Origin: an uncultured Gemmatimonadota bacterium
GTDB taxonomy: Bacteria > Gemmatimonadota > CAZMKB01
Assembly (NCBI GenBank): GCA_964566685.1
Contig: CAZMKB010000006.1
Span: 1-32,769, forward strand
Direction: 5' to 3'
Length of the DNA stretch: 32,769 nt
Each line of letters starts with the position of its first letter. The stretch's first letter is position 1. Shown here piece by piece: positions 783-15,605 of this stretch. The notes under the pieces were generated by a model. That model was not told the origin of the DNA. It ran no database searches and saw only the letters and a program-made list of their open reading frames with translations. A program made the position numbers and the translations under genes.

Positions 783-2141
783 TCACTCCGTCGAGATGTA
801 TCCGAGGGCTTCCAGCTTCTCGATCAGCTGCGAGTCGACCGGAGACGGGATGGGACGCGGCTCTTCCGTCCTCTCTTCCTTCTCGTAGGAGTCGATGTAC
901 TCGACACGCCGCTGTGATCTGAAATCAACGGTGAAGATGTCGAGCGGGACCGATCCTCTCATGTCGCGGGCCACGGGATGACCGGTCATGTAGAGGATGG
1001 CAGGTGTCACATCGAGAACGTGGAGGCCTGAGTGCCGGTAACCTCCACGTATACCGGCTCCGGCGGCGACGAAGACACCTCGCCGGCGGTGCTCGCCGGA
1101 GATGTGCAGGTGACTCCTGACATCCGAGCCCTGGAAGCCGTGATCCGAGACGACGAGCAGCCGGTCCCCGTCTTTCAGCCGGGAGGCGAATTCTCCGAGG
1201 AGCGAATCTGCGAAGATGTGATAGGAGCGGATGACCCCGCCGAGATGCTCCACGTCCGATTCCTTGGGCCCGGTCGAAGAGCCGCCGGGCTCCATGTATT
1301 TCCAGAAGAGATGCTGGACGATGTCGACACCCTCGATGTAAGGGCTGATGAAACCGACTTCCCGGGTGTCCATGAGATGGAGAGACGAGGAGGCATAGGT
1401 CATGTCGGCCGAAAGAGCTATCTTGAGCTCGTAGAGCTTCCTTCCTTCCTCGAGGCCGGGGACGAGCTCGCCGATACGGCAGATTCTCAGGACCTCTTCG
1501 GTTGTGATATCTTCCGGTCCTCTCCGGAACGGCGCGATCTCCTCGAGGAGCGTCCCGGGATACGTGTTGCCGTGGAGCTTCAATCCCGAGTGGATGTAGT
1601 TCGTTGTCAGGTCCCACCGGGAAATGCCGACGTGATCGGAGATCATGTAGCCGTTGACCGGACGGGCGGGCCACGTCGCCCACCACCCCGCCACGACGAC
1701 CTGCGTTCCCCATTCACCCAGAATCTGCCAGACCGGTGTGGCGGCCAGGTAGTTGCTCGTAATCGGGAACGTCACACCGCCGTCGTGCACCACGAAGTCG
1801 GTGATGCCGTGCTCCCGGGGAAGCTTGCTCGTGGCGATGGACGTCCAGATGGCCGGCGAAGTTCCCCACCTCTTTTCTTCGGGGAGGAACACCCACTCGT
1901 CGTCGAGTGAGAGAAGATCGGCGGAAGTGCCTCTTTCGATCAGCGCCGACAGGTGAGGGAGAACCCCCTCGTCGATGAGCGGCTCGATGACATCCCAGTC
2001 GGCACCGTCGAGGGCGAAGAGCACGACACGGCCCTGATTCCCGCCTTCATACCGGCCCGGGCGGTCGCCTTCGCATCCGGTGAGAGACACCAGGAGGATG
2101 AGCAGCGACAGCAAACGATTCATTTTCACATCCGTGAACAT
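783..2141 (-). CDS. Alkaline-phosphatase superfamily enzyme, type I phosphodiesterase/nucleotide pyrophosphatase-like lipoprotein
   Basis: ORF 783..2312, trimmed to ATG 2141 (MFTDVKMNRLLSLLILLVSLTGCEG, lipobox LTGC; ATG 2123 is also possible). Motifs seen: VVLFALDGADWD (metal-binding Asp), SPAIWTSIATS (nucleophile region), LLVVSDHGF and SGEHRRRGVF (distal metal ligands). The 57-aa upstream extension in the ORF track overlaps the preceding gene and is not protein-like. Confidence 0.75.
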   Translation of the reverse strand: MFTDVKMNRLLSLLILLVSLTGCEGDRPGRYEGGNQGRVVLFALDGADWDVIEPLIDEGVLPHLSALIERGTSADLLSLDDEWVFLPEEKRWGTSPAIWTSIATSKLPREHGITDFVVHDGGVTFPITSNYLAATPVWQILGEWGTQVVVAGWWATWPARPVNGYMISDHVGISRWDLTTNYIHSGLKLHGNTYPGTLLEEIAPFRRGPEDITTEEVLRICRIGELVPGLEEGRKLYELKIALSADMTYASSSLHLMDTREVGFISPYIEGVDIVQHLFWKYMEPGGSSTGPKESDVEHLGGVIRSYHIFADSLLGEFASRLKDGDRLLVVSDHGFQGSDVRSHLHISGEHRRRGVFVAAGAGIRGGYRHSGLHVLDVTPAILYMTGHPVARDMRGSVPLDIFTVDFRSQRRVEYIDSYEKEERTEEPRPIPSPVDSQLIEKLEALGYISTE

Positions 2142-2143
2142 AC

Positions 2144-2172
2144 GGGCTCCCCATCCGATCCACGGGGAGCCC
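2144..2172 (-). promoter_or_regulatory. GC-rich 9-bp hairpin whose 3' arm contains the Shine-Dalgarno of the AlkP/NPP gene
   Basis: Minus strand reads GGGCTCCCC-gtggatcggat-GGGGAGCCC-gt-ATG(2141). The arms are perfectly complementary (2172-2164 with 2152-2144). GGGGAG sits 5 nt before the ATG. No U-run follows the hairpin. Confidence 0.45.
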
Positions 2173-2250
2173 GTCGAGTCGAGAGCGGATCGGCTTCCGG
2201 CGAACCGCTTCACGGCCCGGTACGGGCGGGAAACGATCAGCCGGATCCGA

Positions 2251-2844
2251 TCAGGGGTAGAGGTAGCAGAGGCCGTCGATGTCGTCGAAATGGAGCGTTC
2301 TCTTGCTGTCATCGCCGTAGTTCATGTACGCGTACATGGTTGCGGCTGTGTAGGACGAGTGCCCCAGGCCGAGAACGTGACCCAGCTCGTGGCAGACGAC
2401 GCTCTGGATGTCGATTTCACTCCAGCCGGTCGGACCGGGCCCGCAGTTCCAGTCCCAGCCGGTGCACATTATCATGTCGCACTCGCGGTTGGGGCCGTTC
2501 GTGACGAGGTAGGTCACGCCGAGAACGCCCGGGTCGCAGGTATCCCACTTGACGACCTGCAGATCGTCGTTGCTCGGTACGGTCCTGTTCCTGATGCCGC
2601 CGTAGGCGAACCGGAAGTCCGAGCAGGAGACGACATTCCAGGCCCTCGCGCCCTGGACGAAGGCATAGTAGTCACCACACTCATCATTGAGGTTCCCGTG
2701 CGCATACATCACCGCGGGCAGGTACTGGTCGCCGAAGGGCGCCCACCATGTCGTGAAGGCGGAGAGCCCCGTTCCGGACGCGAGGAGAAACCCCGCCGCG
2801 AGAACGGCAATCATCATTTTCTGCGTTTTCGATTTCATCATCAA
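2251..2844 (-). CDS. Secreted minimal matrixin-like zinc metalloprotease (M10-like, metzincin)
   Basis: 197 aa. N-terminal signal peptide MMMKSKTQKMMIAVLAAGFLLASGTGLSA. Zinc site VVCHELGHVLGLGHSS matches HExxHxxGxxH(S), followed by a Met-turn-like TMYAYM. Eight Cys residues. GGAG lies upstream of the ATG cluster. Confidence 0.8.
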   Translation of the reverse strand: MMMKSKTQKMMIAVLAAGFLLASGTGLSAFTTWWAPFGDQYLPAVMYAHGNLNDECGDYYAFVQGARAWNVVSCSDFRFAYGGIRNRTVPSNDDLQVVKWDTCDPGVLGVTYLVTNGPNRECDMIMCTGWDWNCGPGPTGWSEIDIQSVVCHELGHVLGLGHSSYTAATMYAYMNYGDDSKRTLHFDDIDGLCYLYP

Positions 2845-2904
2845 GCTCCTTCGTGGAAACTCTTTCTCTCGGTTCAGTCGGAGATTCTACCGGATCGTAC
2901 CCGG

Positions 2905-3399
2905 TCACCGTTCGTTCAGGATGTAGCGATGGATCTCCGCGATGAACTTCTCGACCGTTTTTCCGTTTTCGACGACGACGCCGTCCGAGACGGTGAACAT
3001 TCCCTGTCTCCAGCCGAGAACATTGCTCTCGTACGACGGATCATCGAGCAGGAAGAGTATCAGGTCGTTTCCGACCCGGAACTCGGCCGTCTCGTGGACC
3101 ACCATCGCCGCGTCGCCGATCCTGCCGCCCGGCCGCTTGATGATGTACTCGCCGCCATCCACATACCCTTTGTAGACCTCATCGACCGAAACGGTCCCGT
3201 AGGTGTAGATGTAGCGGTTCTCAGGGCCCCACTCGGTCCAGGTCGAGGTCACCTCTCCCCTGAGGATGATGTCGGCGTCGATCGCGAGATCCCGGTCGGT
3301 GAACTCGATCAGCGTCGTGGCATGGAGAAGACGCGGGACCGCGATGGACAGAGACAGTACAACGATGAACATGGCCGTGAGGATCCTCCGGAATGACAT
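2905..3399 (-). CDS. Small secreted protein of unknown function (164 aa)
   Basis: Lower part of ORF 2905..3627. ATG 3399 is preceded by GGAGG (about 3405-3412) and begins a signal peptide, MSFRRILTAMFIVVLSLSIAVPRLLHA. A strong promoter candidate (3511-3539) lies inside the ORF-track extension, so the extension is unlikely to be coding. I recognise no family motif. Confidence 0.6.
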   Translation of the reverse strand: MSFRRILTAMFIVVLSLSIAVPRLLHATTLIEFTDRDLAIDADIILRGEVTSTWTEWGPENRYIYTYGTVSVDEVYKGYVDGGEYIIKRPGGRIGDAAMVVHETAEFRVGNDLILFLLDDPSYESNVLGWRQGMFTVSDGVVVENGKTVEKFIAEIHRYILNER

Positions 3400-3510
3400 G
3401 TACAGCCTCCTTGATACATGGTTGTGAGGATCACGTTCTGAGTGTCGTGCCCGCTTCTTCACTGAGAAAGCAACACACAGTTCACTCGCTTCTGCTCCTG
3501 GTTCACTGTA

Positions 3511-3539
3511 ATTGTACGACATTTCCGGGATTATGTCAA
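3511..3539 (-). promoter_or_regulatory. Sigma70-type promoter candidate for the secreted-protein/matrixin/NPP gene string
   Basis: Minus strand reads TTGACA (3539-3534), a 17-nt spacer, then TACAAT (3516-3511). Confidence 0.55.
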
Positions 3540-3555
3540 CTCGACGGGCCGGTCG

Positions 3556-3584
3556 TTGACTTTCCACCGGCTGTCCGGTAAATT
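3556..3584 (+). promoter_or_regulatory. Sigma70-type promoter candidate for the GT-C/TPR gene (divergent from 3511-3539)
   Basis: TTGACT (3556-3561), a 17-nt spacer, then TAAATT (3579-3584). Confidence 0.4.
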
Positions 3585-3609
3585 TCCCGGAGGCAGTCGC
3601 ATGCAACCT

Positions 3610-3651
3610 CCAGCTCGAGTTCTTCATACGATTTCGAGCGGGATTCGGGTC
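3610..3651. repeat. Intergenic repeat family, copy D
   Basis: Plus strand reads ccagctcgagTTCTTCATACGATTTCGAGCGGGATTCGGGtc. Its reverse complement aligns with copy B (28901-28941) at about 35 of 42 hand-aligned positions, including an identical 17-mer GCTCGAAATCGTATGAA. It lies in the presumed 5' leader of the GT-C gene. Confidence 0.7.
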
Positions 3652-3689
3652 AGGGCATTCTCACACAACCCATTCAGAGCACTCAGGCC

Positions 3690-5369
3690 GTGGACCGACC
3701 ATTTCTCCAGCACAGAGCCGCACCCTACTTCATCCTGTTCCTCCTCTCCCTCGCCATCCGCCTCGTCTACCTGTGGGAGATCAGCGGTTCACCGTTCTTC
3801 GATCACGCCGTCGTCGACGAGTACATCTACGATCACATGGCGAAGGCCATAGTCCGGGGTCTCCCCGAACAGAACGGCGTTTTCCGGCCGCCGCTCTATC
3901 CCATGTTCCTCGCCCTCTGGTACGCCATCATCGGCCCCGACGTCGGCATGATGCGGGTCATCCAGATGTTCATCGGTGCCGCGACGACTGTGATGCTCTA
4001 CCACTTCACGAAATCGGCGGTCGACCGGCGGACAGCGCTCGTCGCCGGGCTCCTTCACGCACTGTACTGGCCGGCCGTGCTCTTCCAGGCCGAGCTCCTC
4101 GCCATCTCGATCTTCAGCATCATTCTGCTCTTCACCGTCCACTTCTTCCACCGTGGGACGACGACGGGAGGCTCCCGGTTTTTCCTTGTTTCGGGCCTCT
4201 TTCTCGGCTGCGCGGCGCTCGTGCGGGGGACCGCTCTCCTCGTTCTGCCCGCCCTCCTGATCCATGGAACGGGCATGACGGGAGGCAGGCGGGCGTTCCG
4301 GTCGCTCGCCGTGTTCTGCGTGGCTGCGGGAGTCGTCATATCCCTCTCCGGACTGCGCAATTACGCCCGCACCGGCCACTTCATCCTGCTCTCGTCGAAC
4401 GGAGCGGTCAATTTCTACACGGGAAACGGACCCGAAGCCGACGGTCTGACCCCGGTGCCGCCGGGTGTGGAGTGGAACCGCATGATCAGGGAGCCGATCC
4501 GCCTGGGTCTCACGAGCCCCTCAGCCCAATCCCGGTACTGGCTCGAGAAGACGCTCGGGCACATCACAGGCGATCCCGCGCGCTTCATCGTCCTCTATCT
4601 GAAGAAATGCTACGCCTTCTGGAATGCCTTCGAAGTCTCCAACAACAAAGACATCTATTACATGCGGAACCTGTCGAAACTTCTCTCCCTGCCGCTCCCC
4701 GGATTCGGCCTCGTGGGAGCCCTGGCACTCCTCTCTCTTTTCGTTTGGAGGCGTCTCGGCCGGGAGACGAGACTCGCCTGGATGATCGTCGTCTTTTACA
4801 TGCTCGGCACCGCCCTCTTCTTCGCCGCGGCCCGGTACCGCATGGCGGTCATTCCGTTCTTCATCATCCTCGCGGCATGGAGCGTCACGGACCTCTTCGA
4901 CGACCTGTCACGAAAAAGACCCGGGAGCCTCGCGGGAAAATCGGCTCTTCTCATTCTCTGCCTGCTGTTCGTCAACCTCGACCCGCTCGACATCCGCGCC
5001 TCCGTCAGGACGAGGCCGACTTTTCAGATCGGTCAGATCCTTCTCACGGAGGGGAGAATCGAGGAGGCGCTCGCGCACATGGAGGAGGCGCTCGAGAGAG
5101 ATCCGGACGATCCCGACATCCTGAACAACCTGGGCGTGGCGTACAGGCGGCGGGGAGAGCCGGAAAGAGCCCTCGATTTCTATGAGCGGGCGCTTCGAGA
5201 GGGGGAGTTTTCCGGCGTCAGGTGGAACCTGGGGCTTCTCTACTTCGACCTGGAGCATTACGAAGAGGCGGAGCGCCAGTGGGAGAAGGCTCTCGAAGGC
5301 GATCCGCTCAATCCCGCCATCCGGTCGAATCTTGCGAAGGTTAAACGCCTACTGGCCGGAGATCGGTGA
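3690..5369 (+). CDS. GT-C fold glycosyltransferase (family 39 / ArnT-PMT-like) with C-terminal TPR repeats
   Basis: 559 aa with many predicted TM helices. An acidic first-loop motif VVDEYIYDHMA is present. The C-terminal roughly 130 aa are TPR-like (NNLGVAYRRRGEPERALDFYERAL, WNLGLLYFDLEHYEEAERQWEKAL). GTG start with no clear Shine-Dalgarno. Confidence 0.75.
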   Translation: MDRPFLQHRAAPYFILFLLSLAIRLVYLWEISGSPFFDHAVVDEYIYDHMAKAIVRGLPEQNGVFRPPLYPMFLALWYAIIGPDVGMMRVIQMFIGAATTVMLYHFTKSAVDRRTALVAGLLHALYWPAVLFQAELLAISIFSIILLFTVHFFHRGTTTGGSRFFLVSGLFLGCAALVRGTALLVLPALLIHGTGMTGGRRAFRSLAVFCVAAGVVISLSGLRNYARTGHFILLSSNGAVNFYTGNGPEADGLTPVPPGVEWNRMIREPIRLGLTSPSAQSRYWLEKTLGHITGDPARFIVLYLKKCYAFWNAFEVSNNKDIYYMRNLSKLLSLPLPGFGLVGALALLSLFVWRRLGRETRLAWMIVVFYMLGTALFFAAARYRMAVIPFFIILAAWSVTDLFDDLSRKRPGSLAGKSALLILCLLFVNLDPLDIRASVRTRPTFQIGQILLTEGRIEEALAHMEEALERDPDDPDILNNLGVAYRRRGEPERALDFYERALREGEFSGVRWNLGLLYFDLEHYEEAERQWEKALEGDPLNPAIRSNLAKVKRLLAGDR

Positions 5370-8300
5370 GGAGAAGGACCCGGCGAGCTCTCTGACGCGA
5401 ACGACGTCCCTCGATCGCCGGAAGCACTCCCTCATCTTCCTGTCTTTGAACTTCCGCGAGATCGATCCCGCGATCCTCAGGGCCTTGTCGATTTCCCTCT
5501 TTCCGGCCGCGAGCCGGCCGATCTCCCTCAGGAGCCGCGCGTTCTGGTAGTGGTAGAGCAACTCGAGGTACGGGTCGAGCTCGCCTGCATCGAGCCGAAC
5601 CGTACCGAGCCGATCGAGAGCCTCGCGGGCGCGTCCCTCGGCCTGCATGAGGATGAGCGTCGCGATCATGAACTTCACGGTGTACTCCCTGCTCTTCCTG
5701 TTCGAAGCGAGAGCCTCGAACTCGGTCAGATACTGTCTCGCGGTGTCCAGGCTGCCCTCTTCCGTATTGATTCTGATGAGCCAGAAGAGGTCGTTCATCT
5801 CGTATTCCTTCTTGCCGGTGTTTCTCGAGAGCACGAGGGCCCGTTCGAGATCCCTCCTCGCCTTCCTCGGGTCACCCAGGAAATAACCGGCCATCCCCCT
5901 GTTCCTGATGAAATCCGACTTGCTCCCCTGATCCTTGACCTGCTTGATGTGATCGATCGCCTTCCGGCTCCATTCGTAGGCTTTCGAATAGTCGCCGATC
6001 CGCTGGAATATTTCGCTGATGTTGTTGTAGCTGTATGCCTCGATGATCCTGTTGCCGGTCTCTTTCGCGTTCTCGAGAGCTCTTTCCGCCAGAGAGAGCG
6101 CATTCTCGTACTGCCCGCGCTGCAGTGCGATGATTGCGAGGTTGTTCCTGCACAGCGGCTGATAGGTCTTGTTCCCTGCTTCCTCGAGGATCCGGAGGGT
6201 CTTCCGGTAGTAGGCTTCCGCCCGGTCGCGCTCTTCCTTGTACCAGTAGATGACCCCCATGTTCATGAAGATCTTCGAAAGTCGCAGCTGATCGGGCTGT
6301 CTCCGGTCCATTTCCAGCGCGCGGTCGTAGAACTTGAGAGCCCGGTCGTATTCACCGCTGAAGAGATAGATGTTTCCGAAAGCGGCCAGGCTTTCCGCCT
6401 TGAGGCCGTCATCACCGGTTCCGATCGCATGGCGGAGGGTCCGCATCGAGTAGTCGTACGCGGCTTCGAACTCCCGTTTGAAGATCGATATGCTCGCGAG
6501 ATTCTTCAGTGCCATCCCGAGCTTCCGTTCGTCTCCGAGGGCGGTGCTGAGCTCGAGAACGCTTTCGATGTCGCGCTGGGCCCGCCTGTAGTCCCCGATT
6601 TGCTGGTGCACCAGCCCGCGTTCTTCGTGGAGGATCAGAAGATGCTCATCACCGAACCATTTTCCTCCGGAACGGTAGAGCTTCAGCGCCTTCCCGTAAA
6701 AAACGACGGCTTCGTCGTAGGCGAAGAGATCCCTCGCCTTCCGGGCAGCTCTGACGGCGTACTCGAAGGCCTTCCCGTGATCGCCGCCTGCCTCGAAGTG
6801 GTGTGCGAGCTCCTCGGAGCGCTCTTCCACTCCATGAGGGTCGTACTGCTCGATCGCCGCCGCGGCCCGCCTGTGCAGCTCGACCTTCGTGGTCTCCGGT
6901 ATGCCGGCATAGAGCGCGTGAGCGATGAAATTCTGCACGAATACGTAACGATCACCGTTGAACTCCCTGACCTCCTGGATGATGTTCCCCTGAATGCCCT
7001 CATCGATGATGTCGAGCAGGAATCCCTCGTTCGTCTGCAGGATCGTGAGCAGCACGTCGAACTCGAACTCGTTCCCCAGCACCGAGGCGGCCTGAAACGC
7101 CTTTCTCGCCTCCGGACTCATCTTTTCGATCCGTCGATTGGTGGCTTCCTGTATCGTGGGCGGCAGATCGCTGATGAGCCCCGGCTGTTTCTGCGACTTC
7201 TTCAGGTAATCCACCATCCCCCGGATGAAGAAGGGATTGCCTTCCGTCAGCCGGGAGAGCTCCTCCATCACGCGCTCTTCCGTCTCCTCTCCTTTCAGGA
7301 GGGTCCGGATCATCGCCAGCGACTCCTGCTTCGAAAGGCTCCGCAGAGCGATTTTCCGGTACCGTCCTTCCCGCTCCATCGCCTGGAGCTCCCGTTGCGC
7401 GAGGGCATTCTGGCTCCTTTCGGGAGAATCGGCGGCCGGCCGGCAGGTGCAGACGATCATGATCCGGCCCGACTCCATGGTCCGCGAGAGGAAGTGCAGG
7501 AGCGACAGGGAAGTGACATCAGCCCAGTGTATATCTTCGATAATCATCACGACGCCAACCGCTTCGGCCAGTTTCATGAGAAACTGCCTGAAGGCCTCGA
7601 ATACCAGGAATCGATCCCGTCCCCCGGTTCCGCGCCTGGTTTTCGGCAGTGAGCTCGCCCGTACCCACCGTGGTGCCAGCCGTGCAAGTTCGACGAGAGA
7701 AGCATCAGGCAGGTCGACCGCGTCGATGATCCTGGATTCCTGTTCGTTCGCCAGGCTGTGTGTGAGCAGATCCTTGAACGGAGCGAGCGGTACTTCGGCG
7801 GTCTCCTCGTTGCATTTCCCCCTGAGCGTAAGCATCTTTCTGTGTGCGACCTCGCGGGCTACCTGCTCCATCAGGAAGGTCTTCCCCAGACCGAGCTCAC
7901 CCCGGACGAGAAAGAACCCGGGGTCTCCCGCCTCCGCGCGCCCGACTCCCTTCAGAAGAAGATCGAGCTCCCACTTCTTCCCGAAGACCATCGGGACTCT
8001 GTCGCGGGACTTCGACTTTCTGTTTCCGCCGTCCGTGTGCCTGACGCGAACGGGCTTCCCCCTCGTCTTCGAGAGATACAGTGCCTGGTCGGCGAACTCG
8101 AGGAGACTGACGAGATCGACTGCATCCTCCGGAAACACGGCGAATCCCAGGCTGACCGACACGTCCTCCAGCCGGGCTTCGCATTTTTCCTCCCAGGAGT
8201 AGGTGCGGACGTTGCGCACGATGCGCCGTGCGATACTGAAGGCCTCTTTTTCCATCGCCTCCGGCAGGATGACGACGAACTCGTCCCCCGCCCACCTGCA

Positions 8301-8612
8301 CACGATGTCTTCGTCTCTCACCGATTCCTTGAGAATCGTCCCCACCTGCACCAGCACCCTGTCTCCGATCAGGTGACCGTACGCGTCGTTGATCTCCTTG
8401 AACCTGTTCACATCTATCATCATGAGAGAGAATTTCTTTCCGTGCTTCCTGCAGCGTTTTTCCTCCTCGTCGAGGCGCAGCCGGAAGTAGCGGCGGTTGA
8501 AGAGCCCCGTGAGATCGTCCATCAGGACCAGCTGCCGGAGCTTTTTCGGATCCCAGAACTCCCCCTGTTCGTGCGACGACGTGTCCTTCCTCTTTTCATC
8601 GGAAAAGAGCAT
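5349..8612 (-). CDS. Multidomain signalling protein: N-terminal GGDEF domain (A-site AGDEF, I-site RDED), P-loop NTPase (AAA_16/STAND-like), long TPR array
   Basis: 1087 aa. GGDEF domain: DDLTGLFNRRYF...D(+9 after N)...RDEDIVCRWAGDEFVVIL. AGDEF is encoded at 8277-8291, and RxxD lies 5 residues upstream as in the classic I-site. Walker A is GELGLGKT (7878-7901). Walker B-like is VVMIIEDIHWAD. The C-terminal roughly 600 aa are TPR-like repeats. The 3' end overlaps the convergent GT-C gene by 21 nt. Confidence 0.85.
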   Translation of the reverse strand: MLFSDEKRKDTSSHEQGEFWDPKKLRQLVLMDDLTGLFNRRYFRLRLDEEEKRCRKHGKKFSLMMIDVNRFKEINDAYGHLIGDRVLVQVGTILKESVRDEDIVCRWAGDEFVVILPEAMEKEAFSIARRIVRNVRTYSWEEKCEARLEDVSVSLGFAVFPEDAVDLVSLLEFADQALYLSKTRGKPVRVRHTDGGNRKSKSRDRVPMVFGKKWELDLLLKGVGRAEAGDPGFFLVRGELGLGKTFLMEQVAREVAHRKMLTLRGKCNEETAEVPLAPFKDLLTHSLANEQESRIIDAVDLPDASLVELARLAPRWVRASSLPKTRRGTGGRDRFLVFEAFRQFLMKLAEAVGVVMIIEDIHWADVTSLSLLHFLSRTMESGRIMIVCTCRPAADSPERSQNALAQRELQAMEREGRYRKIALRSLSKQESLAMIRTLLKGEETEERVMEELSRLTEGNPFFIRGMVDYLKKSQKQPGLISDLPPTIQEATNRRIEKMSPEARKAFQAASVLGNEFEFDVLLTILQTNEGFLLDIIDEGIQGNIIQEVREFNGDRYVFVQNFIAHALYAGIPETTKVELHRRAAAAIEQYDPHGVEERSEELAHHFEAGGDHGKAFEYAVRAARKARDLFAYDEAVVFYGKALKLYRSGGKWFGDEHLLILHEERGLVHQQIGDYRRAQRDIESVLELSTALGDERKLGMALKNLASISIFKREFEAAYDYSMRTLRHAIGTGDDGLKAESLAAFGNIYLFSGEYDRALKFYDRALEMDRRQPDQLRLSKIFMNMGVIYWYKEERDRAEAYYRKTLRILEEAGNKTYQPLCRNNLAIIALQRGQYENALSLAERALENAKETGNRIIEAYSYNNISEIFQRIGDYSKAYEWSRKAIDHIKQVKDQGSKSDFIRNRGMAGYFLGDPRKARRDLERALVLSRNTGKKEYEMNDLFWLIRINTEEGSLDTARQYLTEFEALASNRKSREYTVKFMIATLILMQAEGRAREALDRLGTVRLDAGELDPYLELLYHYQNARLLREIGRLAAGKREIDKALRIAGSISRKFKDRKMRECFRRSRDVVRVRELAGSFSSPISGQ

Positions 8613-8827
8613 CGATGAGAATTCGCCTCCAAATTTTCATGGTGAATGGGCTGAAGCTGCCCGGGCTGAACACCATGTGAAATTGCAAGATTCAGTCCAC
8701 CCGGGGCGGAGGATGCCCTCCTCTGCTCGGACTGCCGGCCCGAATTCGCGCATCGAGTGAGCTGAGCCGTGGTGTTCCTGTTGAAGACTACCGGACCAGG
8801 AGGATATCCGGCTTTGCTACAAAATTG

Positions 8828-8856
8828 TTGACAACATCCGTATTGTTTGGTACGAT
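8828..8856 (+). promoter_or_regulatory. Sigma70-type promoter candidate for the small secreted protein / BNR gene pair
   Basis: TTGACA (8828-8833), a 17-nt spacer, then TACGAT (8851-8856). The -35 is embedded in the 11-nt palindrome TGTTGACAACA (8826-8836). Confidence 0.45.
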
Positions 8857-8912
8857 TGAAACATCTCGGGGCTGACACTCTCTCCAGATTTACTTTTCGC
8901 ATGGAGGGCATC

Positions 8913-9331
8913 ATGCAGAAGTATCTTCTCTTTTTCGCAGCGATTCTCTCTCTCTCTCTCTGTTGACCGGTACCGTCTACGCAGAGGATGATCCGGATCC
9001 TCTTCCTGATATCATCATCCAGGTCGCAGTTCCGGATACCGTCGACATCTGGGACCGGTTCGATGTAACCATAAAGGTGTGGAATATGGAAGACACGACT
9101 GTGGTCGTCACCGCGTTCGACAGCTTCTTCGATCCTTCGCTTGGGTGGTACATCGGTCAACCGAAAAACCTAACACTCACTGCAAACAGGGATACTACTT
9201 ACGCGGGGCTTGGTTCACCTCATTTAGCAACCCTGGAAGGTACCTGGAAATTTTCTGCGTCCGTCAGTTTTGCGGAGGAAGAAGGTGACATCATCGACCG
9301 AGACTATAGAGAAACTGTAGTCATCGAGTGA
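8913..9331 (+). pseudogene. Small secreted beta-sandwich-like protein, reading frame interrupted inside the signal-peptide region by a (TC)8 tract
   Basis: ATG 8913 has GGAGGG 5 nt upstream and encodes MQKYLLFFAAILSLSLC, then a stop at 8964-8966. The 122-aa ORF 8963..9331 (LTGTVYAEDDPDPLPDIIIQVAVPD...) continues in another frame. Removing one TC unit gives MQKYLLFFAAILSLSLLTGTVYA/EDD..., a textbook signal peptide with an AxA-like cleavage site. Confidence 0.7.
8945..8961. repeat. Dinucleotide simple-sequence repeat (TC)8+T
   Basis: Read directly from the sequence: ttctctctctctctctctctg. It is the only long dinucleotide tract I noticed in the window, and it sits exactly at the frame break of the 8913-9331 gene. 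Confidence 0.95.
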
Positions 9332-9405
9332 AACTGAGTACCATGTCAGCCCCGGGATCACCGTTTTCATGGTATTCTGTGAATCCATCCTTTACGGAGG
9401 ACATC

Positions 9406-11544
9406 GTGCGAAAGAAGCTGACACTCTCTTTGTCTCTGTTCGTAACTGCTCTCTTCGTCCACACAGGTGTGCTCCCCGGTCAGCCAGTCGGGCCCCGGTT
9501 CCTCGAGAGGGGGATTCTTCTCCTCGAGCGGACCGGGACGGGAATTCATCTGTACCCCGAGGGGCCGGCGCTTCACGGGTTCGACCCGGCATCGGCGGGG
9601 CCCGGCGGCGACGTCCCGGGAGACGACATGCGCTCCATAAGGTCCTGGACGAGCGCGCATGGTCCGTATGGCGGGTACATCACCGGACTCACCGTCGATC
9701 CTCAGGATCCTTCAACGATGTATGTGGGCGGCATGGCGTTCGGCCTGTTCAAATCAACCGACGCCGGGGAAACATGGCTGCCGAAGCGAAACGGAATCGT
9801 CTGCGACTGGGTGAACCAGATCGACGTCTTCCCGGGGAATACGAACATCGTCGCAGCAGCCTCGTTCGAGCGGCTGAAGTGGAACGAGGGGGACGTGTAC
9901 GGCTCGATCGACGGTGGTGAGTCCTGGTTCTCCCTCGGTCTCGAGGGGATCGGGTGGTGGAGAGCCGTCCACCTAACGAGAAAGGACCCGCGTCGAATTC
10001 TCGCCGGTGGCGAGGCGGGGATCTATCTCAGCACGGATGCGGGCAAGTCCTGGTCCCACCGGAGCGGTACGACGACGGCCTGGCAGTTCACGAGCGATCC
10101 GTCGAGTCCCGACACCATCTACGCGGGTGGAGGACTGGGGAACAGGTACCGGAGCACCGACGGCGGCGAGAGCTGGAGTGATTTCGCCCAGTCCATTCCC
10201 AGTGACAACCTCTCCGGTGTCGCGGTCGACCCCGGCAATCCGAACACCATCTATTGCTCAGCCTTCTCTTTCCCTGTTGCTGACGGCACCGAGGGTGTAT
10301 ACAGGAGTACGGATTTCGGTGCATCCTGGTCACACATACTCACACAGAATGCGTGGACGATCAGGATCGACCCGTCGAACCCGGAGATGATCTGGGCGGG
10401 TGGAGCAGGGCCGTCATATCTCACCGATCCGAGAGTGTGGAGGAGCACGAACGGTGGTGCGACGTGGACCCAGTACGAGCTCGAAATCGAGCACTATTTC
10501 GCCCCTTCGGTGCACGTACTCGAGGTCGATCCCGGAAACGGGGATGAGGTGTACGTGGGGCTCTATAACGCCGGAGTCATGAGAACGACCGACGGAGGTT
10601 CCACCTGGGAGGACAGGAGCTCGGGACTGTCGGGCACGCTCATGAACTGTATCGCCGTTCATCCTTCCGAGCCGGCGACCATCTACGCAGGGACGTGGCA
10701 GGCCGAGCTCTGGAAGACGACCGACGGAGGAGATTCCTGGTTCTGGTCTTCGAACGGGCTCGACGACATCAATCACTCCGTCATGGATGTGGTCGTCGAC
10801 CCCAATGACCCAGGGACGCTCTTCATGGGAGCGGACAACAGCGGCATCTATCGATCGACCGACGGCGGGAACAGCTGGATCAACGTCTACCCCACCTATG
10901 ACCGGGTCTCCTCCGTCGCCATCAGCCCCCATGACTCGGAGGAGATCTGGGCCGGGAAAATCGGTGGTATCCTCAAATCCGTGGATGGTGGGGACACATG
11001 GGATAACATGCTGCCGGGGTACGCAACGAGTGTCGTTGCCGTGAGCCCGTTCGATCCGGAGCTCGTCTGTGCGGGAAATCTTGCACTCTCCGGGGGCGAC
11101 AAGGTAGTGATCTCGGTGAGCAGAAACGGGGGAGAAACCTGGGAAGAGCGCTACACGGACAGTTATGGAGGAATGATAACGTCACTGACTTTTTCCGAGG
11201 CCTATTCCGGTTTCATCTATGCGACGAGTCTCAATCACAACGTGATCAAGAGCTTTGACGCCGGCTTCACCTGGATTCCAGATTACGGTGGCTTCGATCC
11301 CGGTGGGAGAATCCAGGGGATCGCGGCCGATCCGCTTCGCCACAACACGGTCTATGCCGCAGTGAACGATGACAGGGGATTTTACGCGAGCTTCGACGGT
11401 GGAACCACGTGGTATCCCTTCAACGATGGCCTGTGGGTACGGTCTCTCATCACGCTCGAGGTGAATCCTCTCGGGAGCTACCAGATATTCTACACCGGCA
11501 CGAGCGGAGACGGCATCAGTTACAACTATATCCGGTTGCCCTGA
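9406..11544 (+). CDS. Secreted BNR/Asp-box repeat protein, probably tandem beta-propellers (VPS10/sortilin- or GH74-like fold class)
   Basis: ORF 9328..11544, trimmed to GTG 9406, which has GGAGG (9396-9400) 5 nt upstream and starts VRKKLTLSLSLFVTALFVHTGVLPG (signal-like). It carries 13 copies of the Asp-box S/T-x-D/N-x-G-x-x-W: STDAGETW, SIDGGESW, STDAGKSW, STDGGESW, STDFGASW, STNGGATW, TTDGGSTW, TTDGGDSW, STDGGNSW, SVDGGDTW, SRNGGETW, SFDAGFTW, SFDGGTTW. Confidence 0.8.
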   Translation: MRKKLTLSLSLFVTALFVHTGVLPGQPVGPRFLERGILLLERTGTGIHLYPEGPALHGFDPASAGPGGDVPGDDMRSIRSWTSAHGPYGGYITGLTVDPQDPSTMYVGGMAFGLFKSTDAGETWLPKRNGIVCDWVNQIDVFPGNTNIVAAASFERLKWNEGDVYGSIDGGESWFSLGLEGIGWWRAVHLTRKDPRRILAGGEAGIYLSTDAGKSWSHRSGTTTAWQFTSDPSSPDTIYAGGGLGNRYRSTDGGESWSDFAQSIPSDNLSGVAVDPGNPNTIYCSAFSFPVADGTEGVYRSTDFGASWSHILTQNAWTIRIDPSNPEMIWAGGAGPSYLTDPRVWRSTNGGATWTQYELEIEHYFAPSVHVLEVDPGNGDEVYVGLYNAGVMRTTDGGSTWEDRSSGLSGTLMNCIAVHPSEPATIYAGTWQAELWKTTDGGDSWFWSSNGLDDINHSVMDVVVDPNDPGTLFMGADNSGIYRSTDGGNSWINVYPTYDRVSSVAISPHDSEEIWAGKIGGILKSVDGGDTWDNMLPGYATSVVAVSPFDPELVCAGNLALSGGDKVVISVSRNGGETWEERYTDSYGGMITSLTFSEAYSGFIYATSLNHNVIKSFDAGFTWIPDYGGFDPGGRIQGIAADPLRHNTVYAAVNDDRGFYASFDGGTTWYPFNDGLWVRSLITLEVNPLGSYQIFYTGTSGDGISYNYIRLP

Positions 11545-11600
11545 TTGATCCACGCCGAGACCGGCAGACTCGCATCGGAGACATCCCCCGCCCGGACAGA

Positions 11601-11629
11601 TTGACGAACCGGTGCGATCCTCGTATCTT
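11601..11629 (+). promoter_or_regulatory. Sigma70-type promoter candidate for the DPP III-like gene
   Basis: TTGACG (11601-11606), a 17-nt spacer, then TATCTT (11624-11629). Confidence 0.4.
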
Positions 11630-11694
11630 TGAGTGGCGTCACCGTCACCGTGAGCCGTTTCCGCAAACGGTCGGATCCCGAACCGGAGGATGTC

Positions 11695-13377
11695 ATGAAA
11701 GTTACCGCGCTCTTCCTGCTCTTCCTCATGATCCTCTCCTGCGGTCAGCCGGAGCAGAAGAAGGAGGAGGAAGAGGAATACACCATCGATGGTCTCGAAG
11801 TGAAGCCGCCGGAGTACGTTCAGGGACAGCTCCGAAAATTCGCAGCCACCGACATCGAATACGACGAGAGCCTCCTGGACGACACCCAGCCACAGGTCCT
11901 CGAAAAACTGGTCGAAGCAGCCGGGTACATGGACGAGATCTTCCTCCGGCAGGTCTATGACCGCAATGTGGAGATCAGGGAGACGCTCAGAAAGAGCACG
12001 AATCCGGCTGCCGATCTGTATCTCGATTACTTCCTCATCAATTTCGGTCCCTTCGACCGCCTCGAGGACAACATCCCGTTCATCGGAAACGAGGAGAGGC
12101 CGCACGGTGCCGCATTCTACCCGGAGGACATGACGAAGGAGGAGTTCGAGACCTGGCTTGAAACGCATCCCGAGGACAGGGAGGCGTTCGAGAGCAACTT
12201 CACGGTCATCAAGCGTGACGGGACAGTGCTCTCCGCCGTCCCCTACTCGGAGGAGTACCGTGAATTCCTGGAGCCGGCCGCCCGGGCACTGCGTGAGGCG
12301 GCCTCGCTGACGGAGAATGAATCGCTCGCGGCATATCTCGAGAAGAGGGCGGACGCATTCCTCTCCAACGATTACTACGAGAGCGACATGGCCTGGATGG
12401 ACATGCACGACAACCTGGTCGATCCGACGATCGGGCCGTACGAAGTCTACGAGGATCGCCTGATGGGATACAAGGCGGCGTTCGAGGCCTTCATCACGCT
12501 CAAGGACATCGAGGAGAGCAGGAAGTTCGCGGAGTTCGGTATGTATCTGCCCGAGCTCGAGATGAATCTGCCCATCCCCGAGGAGTACAAGAACACGAAA
12601 CGCGGTCTCGCATCTCCCACGAGCGTCGCGACCGAGGTGTTCACAGCCGGTGACACGAAGGCGGGAGTGCAGACGATAGCGTTCAACCTCCCCAATGACG
12701 AGCGCGTGCGCGAAGCGAAGGGGAGCAAAAAGGTCATGCTGAAGAACGTCATCCGGGCGAAATTCGACAGGATCCTCGTTCCGATCGGGGCTCTCGTCCT
12801 GGAAGAAGAGCTGCACGACCAGGTGAATTTCGATTCCTATTTCTACCAGACCTACATGCACGAGATGGCTCACGGGCTGGGCCCCGGCAGGATCGTCGTC
12901 GACGGAACCGAGACCACCGTCAACAGGGAGCTGAAGGAGCACTACTCGGTCATCGAAGAGGCGAAGGCCGATATCGTCGGACTGTTGAACGTGTTCTACT
13001 TCTACGACCGGGGTCTCCTCGAGCAGGACCACAGGCAGACGCTCACGACGTTTCTCGCCGGGCTGTTTCGCTCGATCAGATTCGGGGTACACGAGGCGCA
13101 CGGCGGGGCGAACCTCATCGAGCTGAATTACCTGCGAGAGAAGGGTCACATTTCCTACGATCCCGAAAGCCGCCTCTACCGGATCGATTTCGAAACCGCG
13201 GCGGAGGGTGTTCGTGACCTCGCCCGGGAGTTCCTCATCATCGAGGCGCTCGGAGACTACGAGTCGGCTGCGCTGTTCATCGACCGCTACGGCACCGTCG
13301 GCGAAGATGTCGAGGACATCCTCGAGAAGCTCACGGAGATTCCGGTCGACATCGAACCGCAGTTCGAGATCAGGTGA
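11695..13377 (+). CDS. Dipeptidyl-peptidase III-like (M49-type) zinc metallopeptidase, lipoprotein form
   Basis: ORF 11629..13377, trimmed to ATG 11695, which has GGAGGA upstream. It starts MKVTALFLLFLMILSCGQP (lipobox ILSC). Zinc motifs are YMHEMAHGLGPG (HExxH) and VIEEAKADIVGL (EEAKAD). I recall this pairing from the atypical Caldithrix/plant NUDT3-type DPP III branch, as opposed to HExxGH/EECRAE. Confidence 0.65.
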   Translation: MKVTALFLLFLMILSCGQPEQKKEEEEEYTIDGLEVKPPEYVQGQLRKFAATDIEYDESLLDDTQPQVLEKLVEAAGYMDEIFLRQVYDRNVEIRETLRKSTNPAADLYLDYFLINFGPFDRLEDNIPFIGNEERPHGAAFYPEDMTKEEFETWLETHPEDREAFESNFTVIKRDGTVLSAVPYSEEYREFLEPAARALREAASLTENESLAAYLEKRADAFLSNDYYESDMAWMDMHDNLVDPTIGPYEVYEDRLMGYKAAFEAFITLKDIEESRKFAEFGMYLPELEMNLPIPEEYKNTKRGLASPTSVATEVFTAGDTKAGVQTIAFNLPNDERVREAKGSKKVMLKNVIRAKFDRILVPIGALVLEEELHDQVNFDSYFYQTYMHEMAHGLGPGRIVVDGTETTVNRELKEHYSVIEEAKADIVGLLNVFYFYDRGLLEQDHRQTLTTFLAGLFRSIRFGVHEAHGGANLIELNYLREKGHISYDPESRLYRIDFETAAEGVRDLAREFLIIEALGDYESAALFIDRYGTVGEDVEDILEKLTEIPVDIEPQFEIR

Positions 13378-14146
13378 GCAGAGGCCAGAGGAGGAGCAGA
13401 CCCAGCGGCCACAGGTAGTAGGAAAACAAGTGGAATTTCCCCCGGTGCAGCGCTTTGACGAGAATTCTCAGAGCAAGGTATCCGACGACGGTCGAGGTGA
13501 GAATCCCCGTGAGGAACGGGAGCGCCCCGATGTCGTTGTGGTGATACTGCAGCACGACCTCGAGGGCGTTGGCTCCGAGAATCGCGGGGATGGCAAGCAG
13601 GAACGAAAAACGTGCAGCGGTGGAACGCTCGACTCCCAGGAGGAGGGCCGCCGAAATGGTGAGCCCCGATCGGGACAGTCCCGGGATGATGGCGAGCGCC
13701 TGGGCGATTCCGATCAGGAGGGCATCACGGAACGTCATCCCCTCCACCTCCCTGCCTCCCTCGAGGGCACGGTGCCTCACGGAGTGAAGCACGACACCCG
13801 TGAGAATCAGAGTCCCTCCCACGAGCGATGTCGACGAGAACATGTTTTCGAGAAACAGCGCCACGAACAACCCCGCCACGACCGCCGGTATGGAGCCGGC
13901 GACGATGAGAAGGACGATGTGCCGTGCACTGTCACGGTGCGCTTCTTCCCCCCGGAGACCCCGCAGGATGCCGAGTAGATCCCGCCGGAAGTAGACGACG
14001 ATCGCGATGAGGGTTCCCAGATGAAGAGCCGCATCGAAGAGGAGCTCGGGCTCGTCGAACCCGAGCCATTCCTGGAGAATGACGAGGTGACCGGAGCTCG
14101 AGATCGGCAGGAACTCTGTCAAGCCCTGGAGGATACCCAGAAGCAT
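13370..14146 (-). CDS. uppP: Undecaprenyl-diphosphate phosphatase (BacA/UppP)
   Basis: 258 aa polytopic membrane protein. N-terminus is MLLGILQGLTEFLPISSSGHLVILQ, the hallmark EFLP(I/V)SS(S/T)GH motif. A second conserved block is GIAQALAIIPGLSRSG. The 3' end overlaps the convergent DPP III-like gene by 8 nt. Confidence 0.9.
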   Translation of the reverse strand: MLLGILQGLTEFLPISSSGHLVILQEWLGFDEPELLFDAALHLGTLIAIVVYFRRDLLGILRGLRGEEAHRDSARHIVLLIVAGSIPAVVAGLFVALFLENMFSSTSLVGGTLILTGVVLHSVRHRALEGGREVEGMTFRDALLIGIAQALAIIPGLSRSGLTISAALLLGVERSTAARFSFLLAIPAILGANALEVVLQYHHNDIGALPFLTGILTSTVVGYLALRILVKALHRGKFHLFSYYLWPLGLLLLWPLLT

Positions 14147-14222: not shown

Positions 14223-15605
14223 TTACGTGCTGGAGCTTTCAGCCGAATCCCGGTGTTCGAGCGGAAGGAAGACGGTGAAGCTGGTTCCTTCACCCTCGAC
14301 ACTCTCTACCTGAATCGATCCCCGGTGTGCGTCGACGATCCTTTTCACGATGGCGAGGCCCAGGCCGAGACCGTCGGAGGATCCGCCTCTGCCCGATTGC
14401 ACGAATCTCTCGAAGATCCGCTCTTTCATGTCATCCGGTATGCCGATACCCTGATCCCGGATTGATATGCCGATGAAACCTTCCCCCATCAGCCCGTCGT
14501 CCCGTTCGATGGAGATCGTGTCTCCGTCGTGGGAGAACTTGATGGCATTGTGGATGAGATTGATGAAGAGCTGCGAAAGACGCCGGCGATCGCCGTGGAT
14601 GAACGGGACCTCCTCTCCCAGCCGATTCACGATCTCGATTTCCCTGTCGCGGGCGATGGGATACGTCTCGGAGACACTTTGCTCGAGCATGTTCTTTACA
14701 TCGACCGGTTCCACTTCGAGCTCGACGGACCGGGACTCGAACCTCACCAGCTCGAGGAGGTCGTCGATCAGGAGTTCGAGCTTCTTCCCGCTCAGAAAGA
14801 GCGTCTCGACCAGCTGTTTCTGATTCATGTTCAGCGTACCGAAGGAATCTCCCCGCAGTGCTTCGGACGTAGTGAGAATCGGGGTGAGCGGTGTCCGCAG
14901 CTCGTGAGACAGATTCTCGAAGAACTCCTTCCGGGCTCGTGAAGTTTCCGACAGCTCACTGAAGGCCCGCTCGAGCTGGCGGGAGCTCCGCTTCAGACGT
15001 TCGACTTCGGACTGGAGATCTTCATTCCGATCAGCGAGATCGCGATGATCCTCCGACACCCTGCGAAGTTGTGACCGCGCTTTCGCCAGTGCGAGAAGCT
15101 GTACGAAAAAGAGCGCCGCGAACGGTGAAACCATCAGAGCCTCGTCCACATCCCGTTCCGAGTACATCCACTCTGCGGACCTGCCCAGAACCAGGGCACC
15201 GGTGATCGTCCCCCGGATGAAGAGAGGAAACGCCAGGATGGAATAGTCCGGTACGGCAGGGAGGGGGTGACCGGATTCGGGATCCCGTCCGTTGACAAAC
15301 ACACCGAGCCCGGTCTCCACGACATCGGCTGCGATCATGTTCGTCCACCTCGCCTGATTCTGAAGAGCCTCCGGCAGCTTCCGGCTGGCGACCCGGTTCA
15401 CCTTCTTCCGGGCGTGATTCACCGAGAAGAGCACGCTCCACGATGCCTCGAAGTACTGCTCGAACGCGCAGTTGATCACGGACGGCGAGGCATCGTCCCA
15501 CCCGGCGGCAGAGAGGAGCCGGAGGAACTCCCCGATCCTGCGGTGGACTCCGGGTGAATTTCCGGTGGTGTCCCGAAGATCAGCGGAGTCGCTTTTCTCG
15601 ATCAC
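14223..15605 (-). CDS. Cytoplasmic sensor histidine kinase (GAF-like N-terminal region, HisKA, HATPase_c)
   Basis: 460 aa. H-box is LSHELRTPLTPIL, N-box is LINLIHNAIKFS, G-boxes are IRDQGIGIP and GLGLGLAIVKRIV. The GTG start overlaps the upstream kinase stop (GTGA at 15602-15605). Confidence 0.85.
   Translation of the reverse strand: MIEKSDSADLRDTTGNSPGVHRRIGEFLRLLSAAGWDDASPSVINCAFEQYFEASWSVLFSVNHARKKVNRVASRKLPEALQNQARWTNMIAADVVETGLGVFVNGRDPESGHPLPAVPDYSILAFPLFIRGTITGALVLGRSAEWMYSERDVDEALMVSPFAALFFVQLLALAKARSQLRRVSEDHRDLADRNEDLQSEVERLKRSSRQLERAFSELSETSRARKEFFENLSHELRTPLTPILTTSEALRGDSFGTLNMNQKQLVETLFLSGKKLELLIDDLLELVRFESRSVELEVEPVDVKNMLEQSVSETYPIARDREIEIVNRLGEEVPFIHGDRRRLSQLFINLIHNAIKFSHDGDTISIERDDGLMGEGFIGISIRDQGIGIPDDMKERIFERFVQSGRGGSSDGLGLGLAIVKRIVDAHRGSIQVESVEGEGTSFTVFLPLEHRDSAESSST

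Follow-up and report, generated by a model that had tools for sequence, protein, structure and literature searches.

In the usual description of diguanylate cyclases (DGCs), N-terminal sensor domains switch the enzyme through a rigid helical linker, and the locus considered here raises the question of what would control such an enzyme when the catalytic domain stands first and an NTPase and a repeat array follow it. The gene lies in a window of 32,769 nucleotides, the whole stretch of DNA that was analysed, from an uncultured Gemmatimonadota bacterium (GCA_964566685.1, contig CAZMKB010000006.1), for which an original prediction had proposed a GGDEF effector fused to a STAND-like P-loop NTPase and a long TPR sensor array. 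The gene, its relatives and its genomic surroundings indicate that the product is probably a soluble DGC employing a STAND NTPase (MalT/PH0952-like, AAA_16-type) and a TPR sensor as its input module, and that it is typical of a large family that has gone unstudied.

The coding sequence is a single open reading frame (ORF) of 1087 codons plus stop, found where the prediction had placed it, with the correction that it lies on the minus strand (Table 1). Just eight in-frame codons precede the ATG before a stop is met (open frame 1095 aa) and orthologues align from the first residues, so the start codon is regarded as sound. Pfam profiles place PF00990 (GGDEF) at aa 30-186 (E 1.8e-47, 161.6 bits against a cut-off of 23.8), AAA_16 at aa 209-387 (E 2.5e-23), TPR_12 at six stretches and TPR_MalT at aa 699-885, with TIGR00254 also matching the GGDEF domain (E 1.3e-48); REC, PAS or GAF domains were not detected by Pfam in the protein. 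A whole-chain AlphaFold2 model built from 44 homologues is confident (mean predicted local distance difference test, pLDDT, 85.5) and sets the borders at aa 22-188 for GGDEF, 193-206 for a disordered linker, 209 to ∼425 for an alpha/beta nucleotide-binding domain (NBD), 428-475 for a helical domain (HD), ∼485-570 for a winged helix and 573-1081 for paired helices; the nucleotide-binding oligomerization domain (NOD), consisting of NBD, HD and winged-helix domain (WHD), spans aa 209-572. Profile search and model confirm that GGDEF, AAA_16 and TPR are joined in one protein, and the repeat region (arm and TPR), which had been put at roughly 600 aa, comes to ∼510 aa. No transmembrane (TM) segment is present, the highest Kyte-Doolittle value over 19 aa being 1.48. 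The protein is soluble and cytoplasmic and, as had been claimed, is devoid of TM, REC, PAS and GAF input.

The catalytic domain and its probable product

A GGDEF domain is active only when paired with another and both carry GTP. That of the window protein superimposes on the active DGC structures 3IGN, 4URG and 5LLX with a root-mean-square deviation of ∼2 A, and reaches a TMt of 0.85-0.89 to 3IGN, 4URS and 4URG (Foldseek). In an alignment of 44 relatives with the GGDEF-NTPase-TPR layout, which come from several candidate phyla, residues D32, R40, D67, K72, N75, D76, H80, D84, R106, G109, D110, E111, F112 and K182 are invariant (44/44) and N39 is kept in 38. For the metal-binding Asp, the phosphate-binding Lys and the two guanine contacts of the window protein, we take the PleD equivalents to be D327, K442, N335 and D344, respectively. 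The guanine contacts enclose the stretch N39RRYFRLRLD48 (nt 8469-8498); the guanine-specifying N...D pair described in the original prediction is thus present in the window protein, but its Asp is unconserved even in close orthologues. The I-site RDED stands five residues ahead of AGDEF as quoted there, its R99 being kept in 42 and D102 in 41 of the 44 relatives, and RxxD is found in 79 of 81 further family representatives. Across GGDEF domains generally, RxxD occurs in ∼44% and AG(D/E)EF in 1.6% (PMC3974145). The near-universal RxxD of this family, set against that general frequency, argues for catalysis with product feedback and for cyclic diguanylate (c-di-GMP) as the cognate nucleotide. 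In the window protein itself, c-di-GMP is likewise indicated by the I-site together with the canonical N/D pair, and to judge from the sequence the protein very probably makes it.

The variant A-site, AGDEF, had been thought to leave open whether the domain is a cyclase, a receptor or the source of another product. It occurs in 7/7 close orthologues, in 42 of the first 120 homologues (30 have GGDEF) and in 34 of 81 further cluster representatives with the layout (47 have GGDEF), a share of ∼42-58% of the family, and sister clades can differ in having AGDEF or GGDEF. AGDEF is a lineage-conserved form of the A-site and no isolated decay. For the AGDEF enzyme VCA0965, c-di-GMP synthesis has been shown in vitro, and the first position of the A-site tolerates A, G, M and H (Hunter et al., PMC3974145). 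Lineage conservation, interchange with GGDEF, the invariant catalytic residues and the activity of VCA0965 largely resolve the question.

Less regular is the position that reads guanine. Canonical DGCs carry Asp at the PleD D344 position and Hypr cGAMP synthases Ser, and enzymes with a residue other than Asp are exclusively GGDEF (Hallberg et al., PMC6456294). Over 125 resolved family members, with the register of this position taken from an ungapped sequence pattern and no ligand-bound structure, Asp is found in 10%, Glu in 13% and Ser or Thr in 10/125, the Watson-Crick-face Asp being replaced in about three quarters of family members. In 19% of the family Leu stands in the place of PleD N335, corresponding to a Gemmatimonadaceae GGDEF-only clade ('LPLRGAF'), and the A-site of the 125 is always xGDEF, never xGEEF. 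An A-site that is xGDEF only, a rare D344-type Asp and a near-universal RxxD together form an unusual pattern for canonical DGCs.

The STAND module, its tether and its presumed sensor

The NTPase module is a STAND-type NOD. Such a tripartite NOD consists of an AAA+-like NBD-HD module and a STAND-specific winged-helix domain (PMC6468293). Walker A (GELGLGKT) and Walker B (MIIEDIHWAD) are present as predicted, with the numbering of K244 correct. In an alignment of 54 NOD sequences that includes modules fused to LuxR, XRE, kinase, adenylate cyclase (AC) and OmpR-type effectors, G238, G241, G243, K244, R391, G458, P460, P484, G513, F516, F558 and H580 are invariant. R391 belongs to a 'T-x-R' following strand 384-390, and 'TEGNPFF' in the HD is common to GGDEF-fused modules and to those fused to LuxR, XRE, kinase and AC domains. 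H580 lies within 'F-x-H-x-L' of the winged-helix region, at the same position as 'YHPLF' in the E. coli MalT sequence, and presumably represents the ADP-contacting 'MHD'-type position.

Modelled alone, aa 200-620 yield a pLDDT of 89.6 and a predicted template modelling score (pTM) of 0.83, with an alpha/beta core in the NBD. The Foldseek ranking of the isolated module against the PDB is headed by PAB2304 (2QEN), MalT (8BOB), Apaf-1 (3SHF, 3SFZ, 1Z6T), tomato NRC3/NRC2 and PH0952 (6MFV), followed by Cdc6/ORC and other AAA+ proteins, and the top alignments extend over ∼400-450 columns. For the whole chain the best Foldseek match is PH0952 (6MFV, E 4.6e-14), to our knowledge the only crystal structure of a STAND protein with a TPR sensor. 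When the NOD alone (aa 188-609) was run against PDB sequences with phmmer, nothing meaningful came back (best E 0.43, protein A), and the kinship with MalT, PH0952 and Apaf-1 is seen at the level of the fold only. Motif conservation, the module model and the Foldseek ranking bear out the STAND appearance noted in the original prediction; the module does not cluster with non-STAND AAA+ families, STAND structures outranking Cdc6/ORC.

Between the catalytic domain and the NOD lies a tether that is hypervariable in sequence. Identity to orthologues is 5-20% here, compared with ∼70% in GGDEF, ∼48% in NBD and in HD, ∼68% in WHD and 50-60% in TPR, yet the stretch separating the A-site from Walker A measures 114-137 aa throughout 156 family members. 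A disordered tether of this kind, unlike the rigid couplers of PleD and WspR, fits a mechanism based on proximity rather than on torque or register. The TPR region is modelled as regular helix pairs (pLDDT ∼90) and matches 6MFV and the TPRs of LGN and Pins (Foldseek). The presumed sensor evolves no faster than the rest of the protein, unlike immune receptors, and its conservation among orthologues suggests that the ligand is an endogenous, conserved molecule or protein.

Relatives and genomic context

At E <= 1e-30, 9915 cluster representatives match some part of the protein, and the layout of GGDEF followed by Walker A is found in 81 of the 143 best new cluster representatives (50% identity clusters); the family carries generic database labels, either 'diguanylate cyclase' or 'TPR protein'. 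The homologues range from GGDEF fusions to the same module joined to HTH_XRE, LuxR/GerE, BTAD, Pkinase, class III cyclase and OmpR-type domains. The best NCBIfam match, TIGR03903 (TOMM kinase/cyclase fusion; aa 193-861, E 9.7e-57, 192.6 bits against a cut-off of 705.75), covers the NOD-TPR part only, and the protein has no Pfam match to PF00211 (class III cyclase), GGDEF occupying the effector position. The likeness to AC/AAA/TPR proteins in the original prediction extends to homology, the NOD being homologous to that of class III cyclase, kinase, LuxR, XRE and BTAD fusions.

Phylogenetic placement of the NTPase module, a check named in the prediction, relied on a quick maximum-likelihood tree of 118 NOD modules in which deep branches carry SH-aLRT support only and several are unresolved. 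The tree groups modules by effector. One GGDEF clade of 47 rows (46 GGDEF-fused and one without a recognised effector) holds the window protein and its paralogue from the same genome, and a second GGDEF-bearing clade contains 28 members from Gemmatimonadaceae, a mix of HD-GYP+GGDEF (∼1600 aa) and GGDEF-only proteins. Clades fused to AC, kinase, LuxR and XRE/BTAD domains neighbour the GGDEF clades, and E. coli MalT forms a distant outgroup on a very long branch (4.0 substitutions per site). The GGDEF-NOD fusion appears from this to be old and largely vertically propagated within clades; no claim is made as to the number of its origins.

Two variant architectures were encountered. In the Gemmatimonadaceae proteins of ∼1600 aa the order is TPR, HD-GYP (PF13487/PF01966), GGDEF (AGDEF), NOD (AAA_16/NB-ARC) and TPR (example at 8001-12788 of a locus from GCA_020851035.1), which sets phosphodiesterase-type and cyclase domains on one STAND scaffold; GCA_020851035.1 carries both this variant and a GGDEF-only family member. 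The cultured isolate Tissierella sp. P1 encodes a 1792-aa protein (2113-7488 of its own locus) arranged as Pkinase, AAA_16, TPR, further sequence and a C-terminal GGDEF, a second, independent joining of STAND and GGDEF that could serve as a culturable model. With its N-terminal kinase and C-terminal cyclase it was rejected as a cultured host of the N-terminal-GGDEF layout, and no such host was identified in a scan of species-representative genomes, which was keyed on GGDEF patterns and returned mostly generic cyclases, Tissierella sp. P1 being its sole match from a cultured isolate to span both GGDEF and TPR. In keeping with the prediction that such logic had not been characterised for a GGDEF effector, no description of a GGDEF-STAND protein was found in 8.1 million PMC papers or in bioRxiv, where the matches were incidental ones such as a catalogue number and domain tables for Leptospira; a 2005 kinase census lists one kinase-TPR-GGDEF protein (PMC1262709).

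The window represents core chromosome. Its genes encode a type I phosphodiesterase, a PMT_2/TPR glycosyltransferase, a BNR/Sortilin repeat protein, an M49 peptidase, UppP, two histidine kinases (HKs) and an ABC ATPase, as well as sigma-70, signal peptidase I, an aldehyde dehydrogenase, an NtrC-type activator, LigT, CinA and DnaX. In each of three orthologous loci (∼55% identical) the genes follow the order S26 - sigma70 - NPCBM_assoc - ABC - HK - HK - M49 - GGDEF-STAND - PMT_2/TPR - hypothetical - M10 - Phosphodiest. Relative to these loci the window has additional genes at two places, 8613-11544 and 13370-14146. The HK pair, downstream of the ABC ATPase and NPCBM_assoc genes and with no adjacent response regulator, is kept in all three. 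The glycosyltransferase gene converges on the cyclase gene, with an overlap of 18-21 nt in the three orthologous loci, which could reflect mere synteny or antisense coupling of the 3′ ends. A functional link between the two products was considered and rejected, there being no specific signal for it: the whole ∼20 kb block is syntenic, the genes are convergent, and distant homologues are found without this neighbour.

Table 1. Features of the window, numbered from its first nucleotide; residue numbers are those of the cyclase protein.
Feature	Position	Strand	Basis or remark
Whole coding sequence, GGDEF - tether - NOD (NBD-HD-WHD) - arm/TPR	5349..8612	-	ORF list, translation, Pfam, AlphaFold2
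GGDEF domain, aa 22-188, with metal-binding D67, guanine-contact N39/D48 and phosphate-binding K182	8049..8549	-	PF00990, Foldseek, conservation
I-site R99-D-E-D102 (RxxD product-inhibition site), 5 residues before A-site	8307..8318	-	Sequence, conservation
A-site A108-G-D-E-F112, AGDEF variant of GGDEF	8277..8291	-	Sequence, conservation
Disordered basic tether, aa 189-208	7989..8048	-	pLDDT <50 at aa 193-206
NBD of NOD, aa 209-425, including sensor-I-like R391 ('TCR')	7338..7988	-	AAA_16, module model, conservation
Walker A G238-E-L-G-L-G-K244-T245	7878..7901	-	Sequence; G238, G241, G243 and K244 invariant
Walker B strand and next motif V354-V-M-I-I-E359-D360-I-H-W-A-D365	7518..7553	-	Sequence; model strand 354-359
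HD with GxP motif T456-E-G458-N-P460-F-F	7173..7337	-	Model helices 428-473; G458 and P460 invariant
WHD, aa 481-572, and start of next helix; F558 and H580 motif	6897..7172	-	Model H485-541, E545-547, E555-558
Arm and TPR solenoid, aa 573-1081, ∼12-13 helical hairpins, presumed sensor	5370..6896	-	TPR_12, TPR_MalT, model
PMT_2 (GT-C) glycosyltransferase with C-terminal TPR	3690-5369	+	3′ end converges on cyclase gene, 21-nt overlap
Family-less 122-aa ORF	8963-9331		Between cyclase gene and M49; extra relative to orthologous loci
BNR/Sortilin-Vps10 repeat protein, 738 aa	9328-11544		Between cyclase gene and M49; extra relative to orthologous loci
UppP/BacA	13370-14146		Between M49 and HKs; extra relative to orthologous loci
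Two tandem HK genes, PAS-GAF-HisKA-HATPase (813 aa) and (GAF)-HisKA-HATPase (460 aa)	14223-18043	-	4-nt overlap

Within the phylum, of which 61 genomes were sampled, exactly two paralogues are present in 6/6 genomes of the window's order, and one of the 55 others has a weak match; this argues for vertical inheritance and against a patchy distribution, and the duplication that gave rise to the pair is, by the same pattern, old. The second paralogue of the genome (C16:20308-22584) has 1170 aa and 32% identity, with AGDEF, an I-site of RSID and the Walker A sequence GPAGSGKS. Four distant family loci are mostly monocistronic, with unrelated metabolic or housekeeping neighbours (V-ATPase, CoA ligases, peptide ABC transporters), and no defence genes lie near them. 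In PADLOC-DB a single model is hit, the generic TPR profile PDLC01169 (E 1.6e-12); at E <= 0.1 none of the NTPase models for Avs or other defence systems matches the protein. The genome encodes five full-length GGDEF proteins, two of them GGDEF-STAND-TPR, together with two partial GGDEF matches, five HD-GYP-type proteins (HD_5) and one PilZ protein, and no EAL domain was found in the whole genome. It is an ordinary c-di-GMP network into which the GGDEF-STAND enzyme can feed. From the seven loci inspected, the gene looks like ordinary core signalling with no sign of an immune role.

Proposed mechanism, alternatives and comparison with known systems

STAND proteins rest in a closed ADP form that is autoinhibited by the arm and sensor, and an inducer brings about ADP/ATP exchange and the formation of an open ATP multimer (PMC6468293). 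Applied to the window protein, these steps would run as follows. At rest, the protein would be monomeric and held closed by arm and TPR, with the N-terminal GGDEF domains kept apart. A cytoplasmic inducer (a metabolite, peptide or protein) would bind the TPR array and open the NOD, ADP would be swapped for ATP and the protein would multimerise. The GGDEF domains, on flexible tethers of ∼20 residues that are constrained in length, would thereby reach a high local concentration and, as GTP-loaded pairs, condense GTP to c-di-GMP, an output that the intact RxxD I-site would cap through product inhibition. The c-di-GMP would then enter the ordinary network of HD-GYP phosphodiesterases and PilZ receptor rather than serve a dedicated immune effector. 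Ligand-triggered oligomerisation that pairs the GGDEF domains would be the most economical mechanism, and the signalling part of the predicted conversion of ligand recognition into a cyclic dinucleotide burst is in line with it, the defence part not.

Several observations tell against this account. In close orthologues the D48 position reads D/D/N/D/D/C, and most other clades have a non-acidic residue there, such that the rules of specificity may differ where the guanine-reading Asp is not conserved. The first Gly of the A-site is replaced, and the AGDEF domain of NbdA is called degenerate in a preprint. In the Walker B region, D365 is kept in 40 of the 44 relatives, but position 360 is Asp in 29 and Asn in 15, and some family members, with Asn in place of this second acid, may hydrolyse ATP slowly or do without hydrolysis. 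The oligomerisation step is taken from homology, the AlphaFold2 models being monomeric and silent on the active state, and the TPR array could merely be a scaffold that localises the enzyme.

The replaced Gly, combined with an intact RxxD, the variability of the Asp nine residues after N39 and the standing of AGDEF domains in some composite proteins, which are regarded as degenerate (NbdA preprint), would also suit a catalytically dead domain that acts as a receptor for c-di-GMP (through the I-site) or GTP, making the protein a c-di-GMP-responsive STAND scaffold. This is unlikely, given that the metal-, phosphate- and catalysis-related residues are invariant in the 44 relatives, which would be unexpected for a receptor-only GGDEF, that sister clades can carry either AGDEF or GGDEF, that VCA0965 is an active enzyme and the first position accepts G, A, M or H (PMC3974145), and that the protein lacks a partner EAL or HD-GYP domain on which an allosteric GGDEF would act. 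The variable Asp bears equally on the product. A Hypr-like or promiscuous enzyme that makes a cyclic dinucleotide other than or besides c-di-GMP, its STAND module working as set out above, would be in keeping with the exclusive xGDEF A-sites, with the scarcity of Asp and Glu at the PleD D344 position, where close orthologues can have N or C, and with the reported division between Asp in canonical DGCs, Ser in Hypr and exclusively GGDEF enzymes among those lacking Asp (PMC6456294). For the window protein it is decidedly unlikely, since N39/D48 is canonical, the c-di-GMP-specific RxxD is near-universal, the Ser/Thr of the Hypr signature is rare and the register derives from the ungapped pattern; altered nucleotide specificity in parts of the family has a small probability. 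A broader form of the idea, in which N-terminal GGDEF-STAND-TPR proteins constitute a distinct enzymatic class with an NLR-like oligomer as activation platform, a catalytic domain that has moved off canonical GTP specificity, members making different or mixed cyclic dinucleotides and the window protein, its Asp kept, as the c-di-GMP reference, is likewise improbable.

The original prediction had also entertained a defence-like logic, in which the TPR array would sense a phage or mobile-element protein, the STAND module would oligomerise in the manner of NLRs or Avs proteins and a c-di-GMP burst would lead to dormancy or another form of defence. The effector-NOD-repeat grammar of Avs proteins and NLRs, and the presence of Apaf-1 and plant NLRs among the structural neighbours, speak for such a role, and GGDEF does occur as a rare effector in predicted conflict systems, although there it belongs to vWA-MoxR systems and not to STAND fusions (Kaur et al., PMC7159879). 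Against it stand the restriction of the PADLOC result to a generic TPR match, the location of the gene in a stable syntenic core block (signal peptidase, sigma-70, DnaX, HKs, UppP), the two paralogues in every sampled genome of the order, a TPR identity among orthologues that is not below that of the NBD, and the lack of an adjacent dedicated c-di-GMP-activated effector. The neighbourhood survey points the same way, the window and the four distant loci lying in housekeeping contexts. With the PADLOC result, the synteny across three orthologous loci, the phyletic pattern and a conserved sensor all against it, the defence reading was rejected, and an immune sensor is highly improbable here.

A soluble DGC with a STAND input module, the reading preferred here, would have its switch in a C-terminal, NTP-dependent oligomerisation machine of the class of MalT, Apaf-1 and NLRs that works by induced proximity. 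Two of the five full-length GGDEF proteins of the genome belong to the family, which therefore probably ranks among the main sources of c-di-GMP in the lineage. A characterised member would define a new c-di-GMP input logic, would allow STAND activation, hard to follow in transcription-factor STANDs, to be read out by a simple enzyme assay, and would show whether AGDEF or a non-Asp active site alters the product.

In sequence, the NOD+TPR module is closest to the class III adenylyl cyclase or Ser-Thr kinase - AAA_16 - TPR proteins of the Rv0386, TIGR03903 and PknK types. Rv0386-type cyclases share with the window protein an N-terminal effector of nucleotide-cyclase fold that must dimerise, but the effector of the Rv0386/TIGR03903 types is PF00211 (cAMP/cGMP) or a kinase, whereas that of the window protein is GGDEF (cyclic dinucleotide), and the modules fused to GGDEF group in clades of their own. 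PH0952 of P. horikoshii (6MFV) and E. coli MalT (8BOB), which rank sixth and second, respectively, for the isolated module in Foldseek, resemble the window protein in that their NBD-HD-WHD NOD leads into an arm and then a TPR-type sensor, and in PH0952 the effector is also N-terminal. Their similarity to the NOD is undetectable by phmmer and their effectors are DNA-binding domains, in contrast to an enzyme that needs dimerisation. Avs proteins, eukaryotic NLRs and Apaf-1 share the tripartite effector-NOD-repeat grammar, and Apaf-1 and NRC/ZAR1-type NLRs are structurally near the NOD. The window protein differs from this group in lacking a PADLOC NTPase match, in its core, syntenic and vertically inherited gene, in its undiversified sensor and in an effector that is not a nuclease, protease or TIR-type killer.

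Among DGCs, PleD, WspR, DgcZ and the bacteriophytochrome enzymes have the same catalytic domain, RxxD motif, catalytic residues and pairing-based activation, but their sensors (REC, PAS, GAF, CZB, PHY) are N-terminal and usually coupled via a rigid helix or coiled coil, whereas the GGDEF domain of the window protein is at the extreme N-terminus, with an NTP-dependent regulatory module of ∼880 aa located C-terminally behind a disordered tether. VCA0965 of Vibrio cholerae, an active DGC (PMC3974145), has AGDEF and RxxD in common with it but possesses an N-terminal domain of five TM segments and neither NTPase nor TPR, and AGDEF evidently arose independently in VCA0965 and in the GGDEF-STAND family. 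The catalytic domain is thus that of a standard DGC, and the effector-NOD-TPR grammar is already known from MalT, PH0952, AfsR and the mycobacterial cyclase- and kinase-STAND proteins; what is new, compared with the descriptions found in the literature, is a DGC with a C-terminal STAND as its input module, a combination that is unsurprising at the level of domain grammar.

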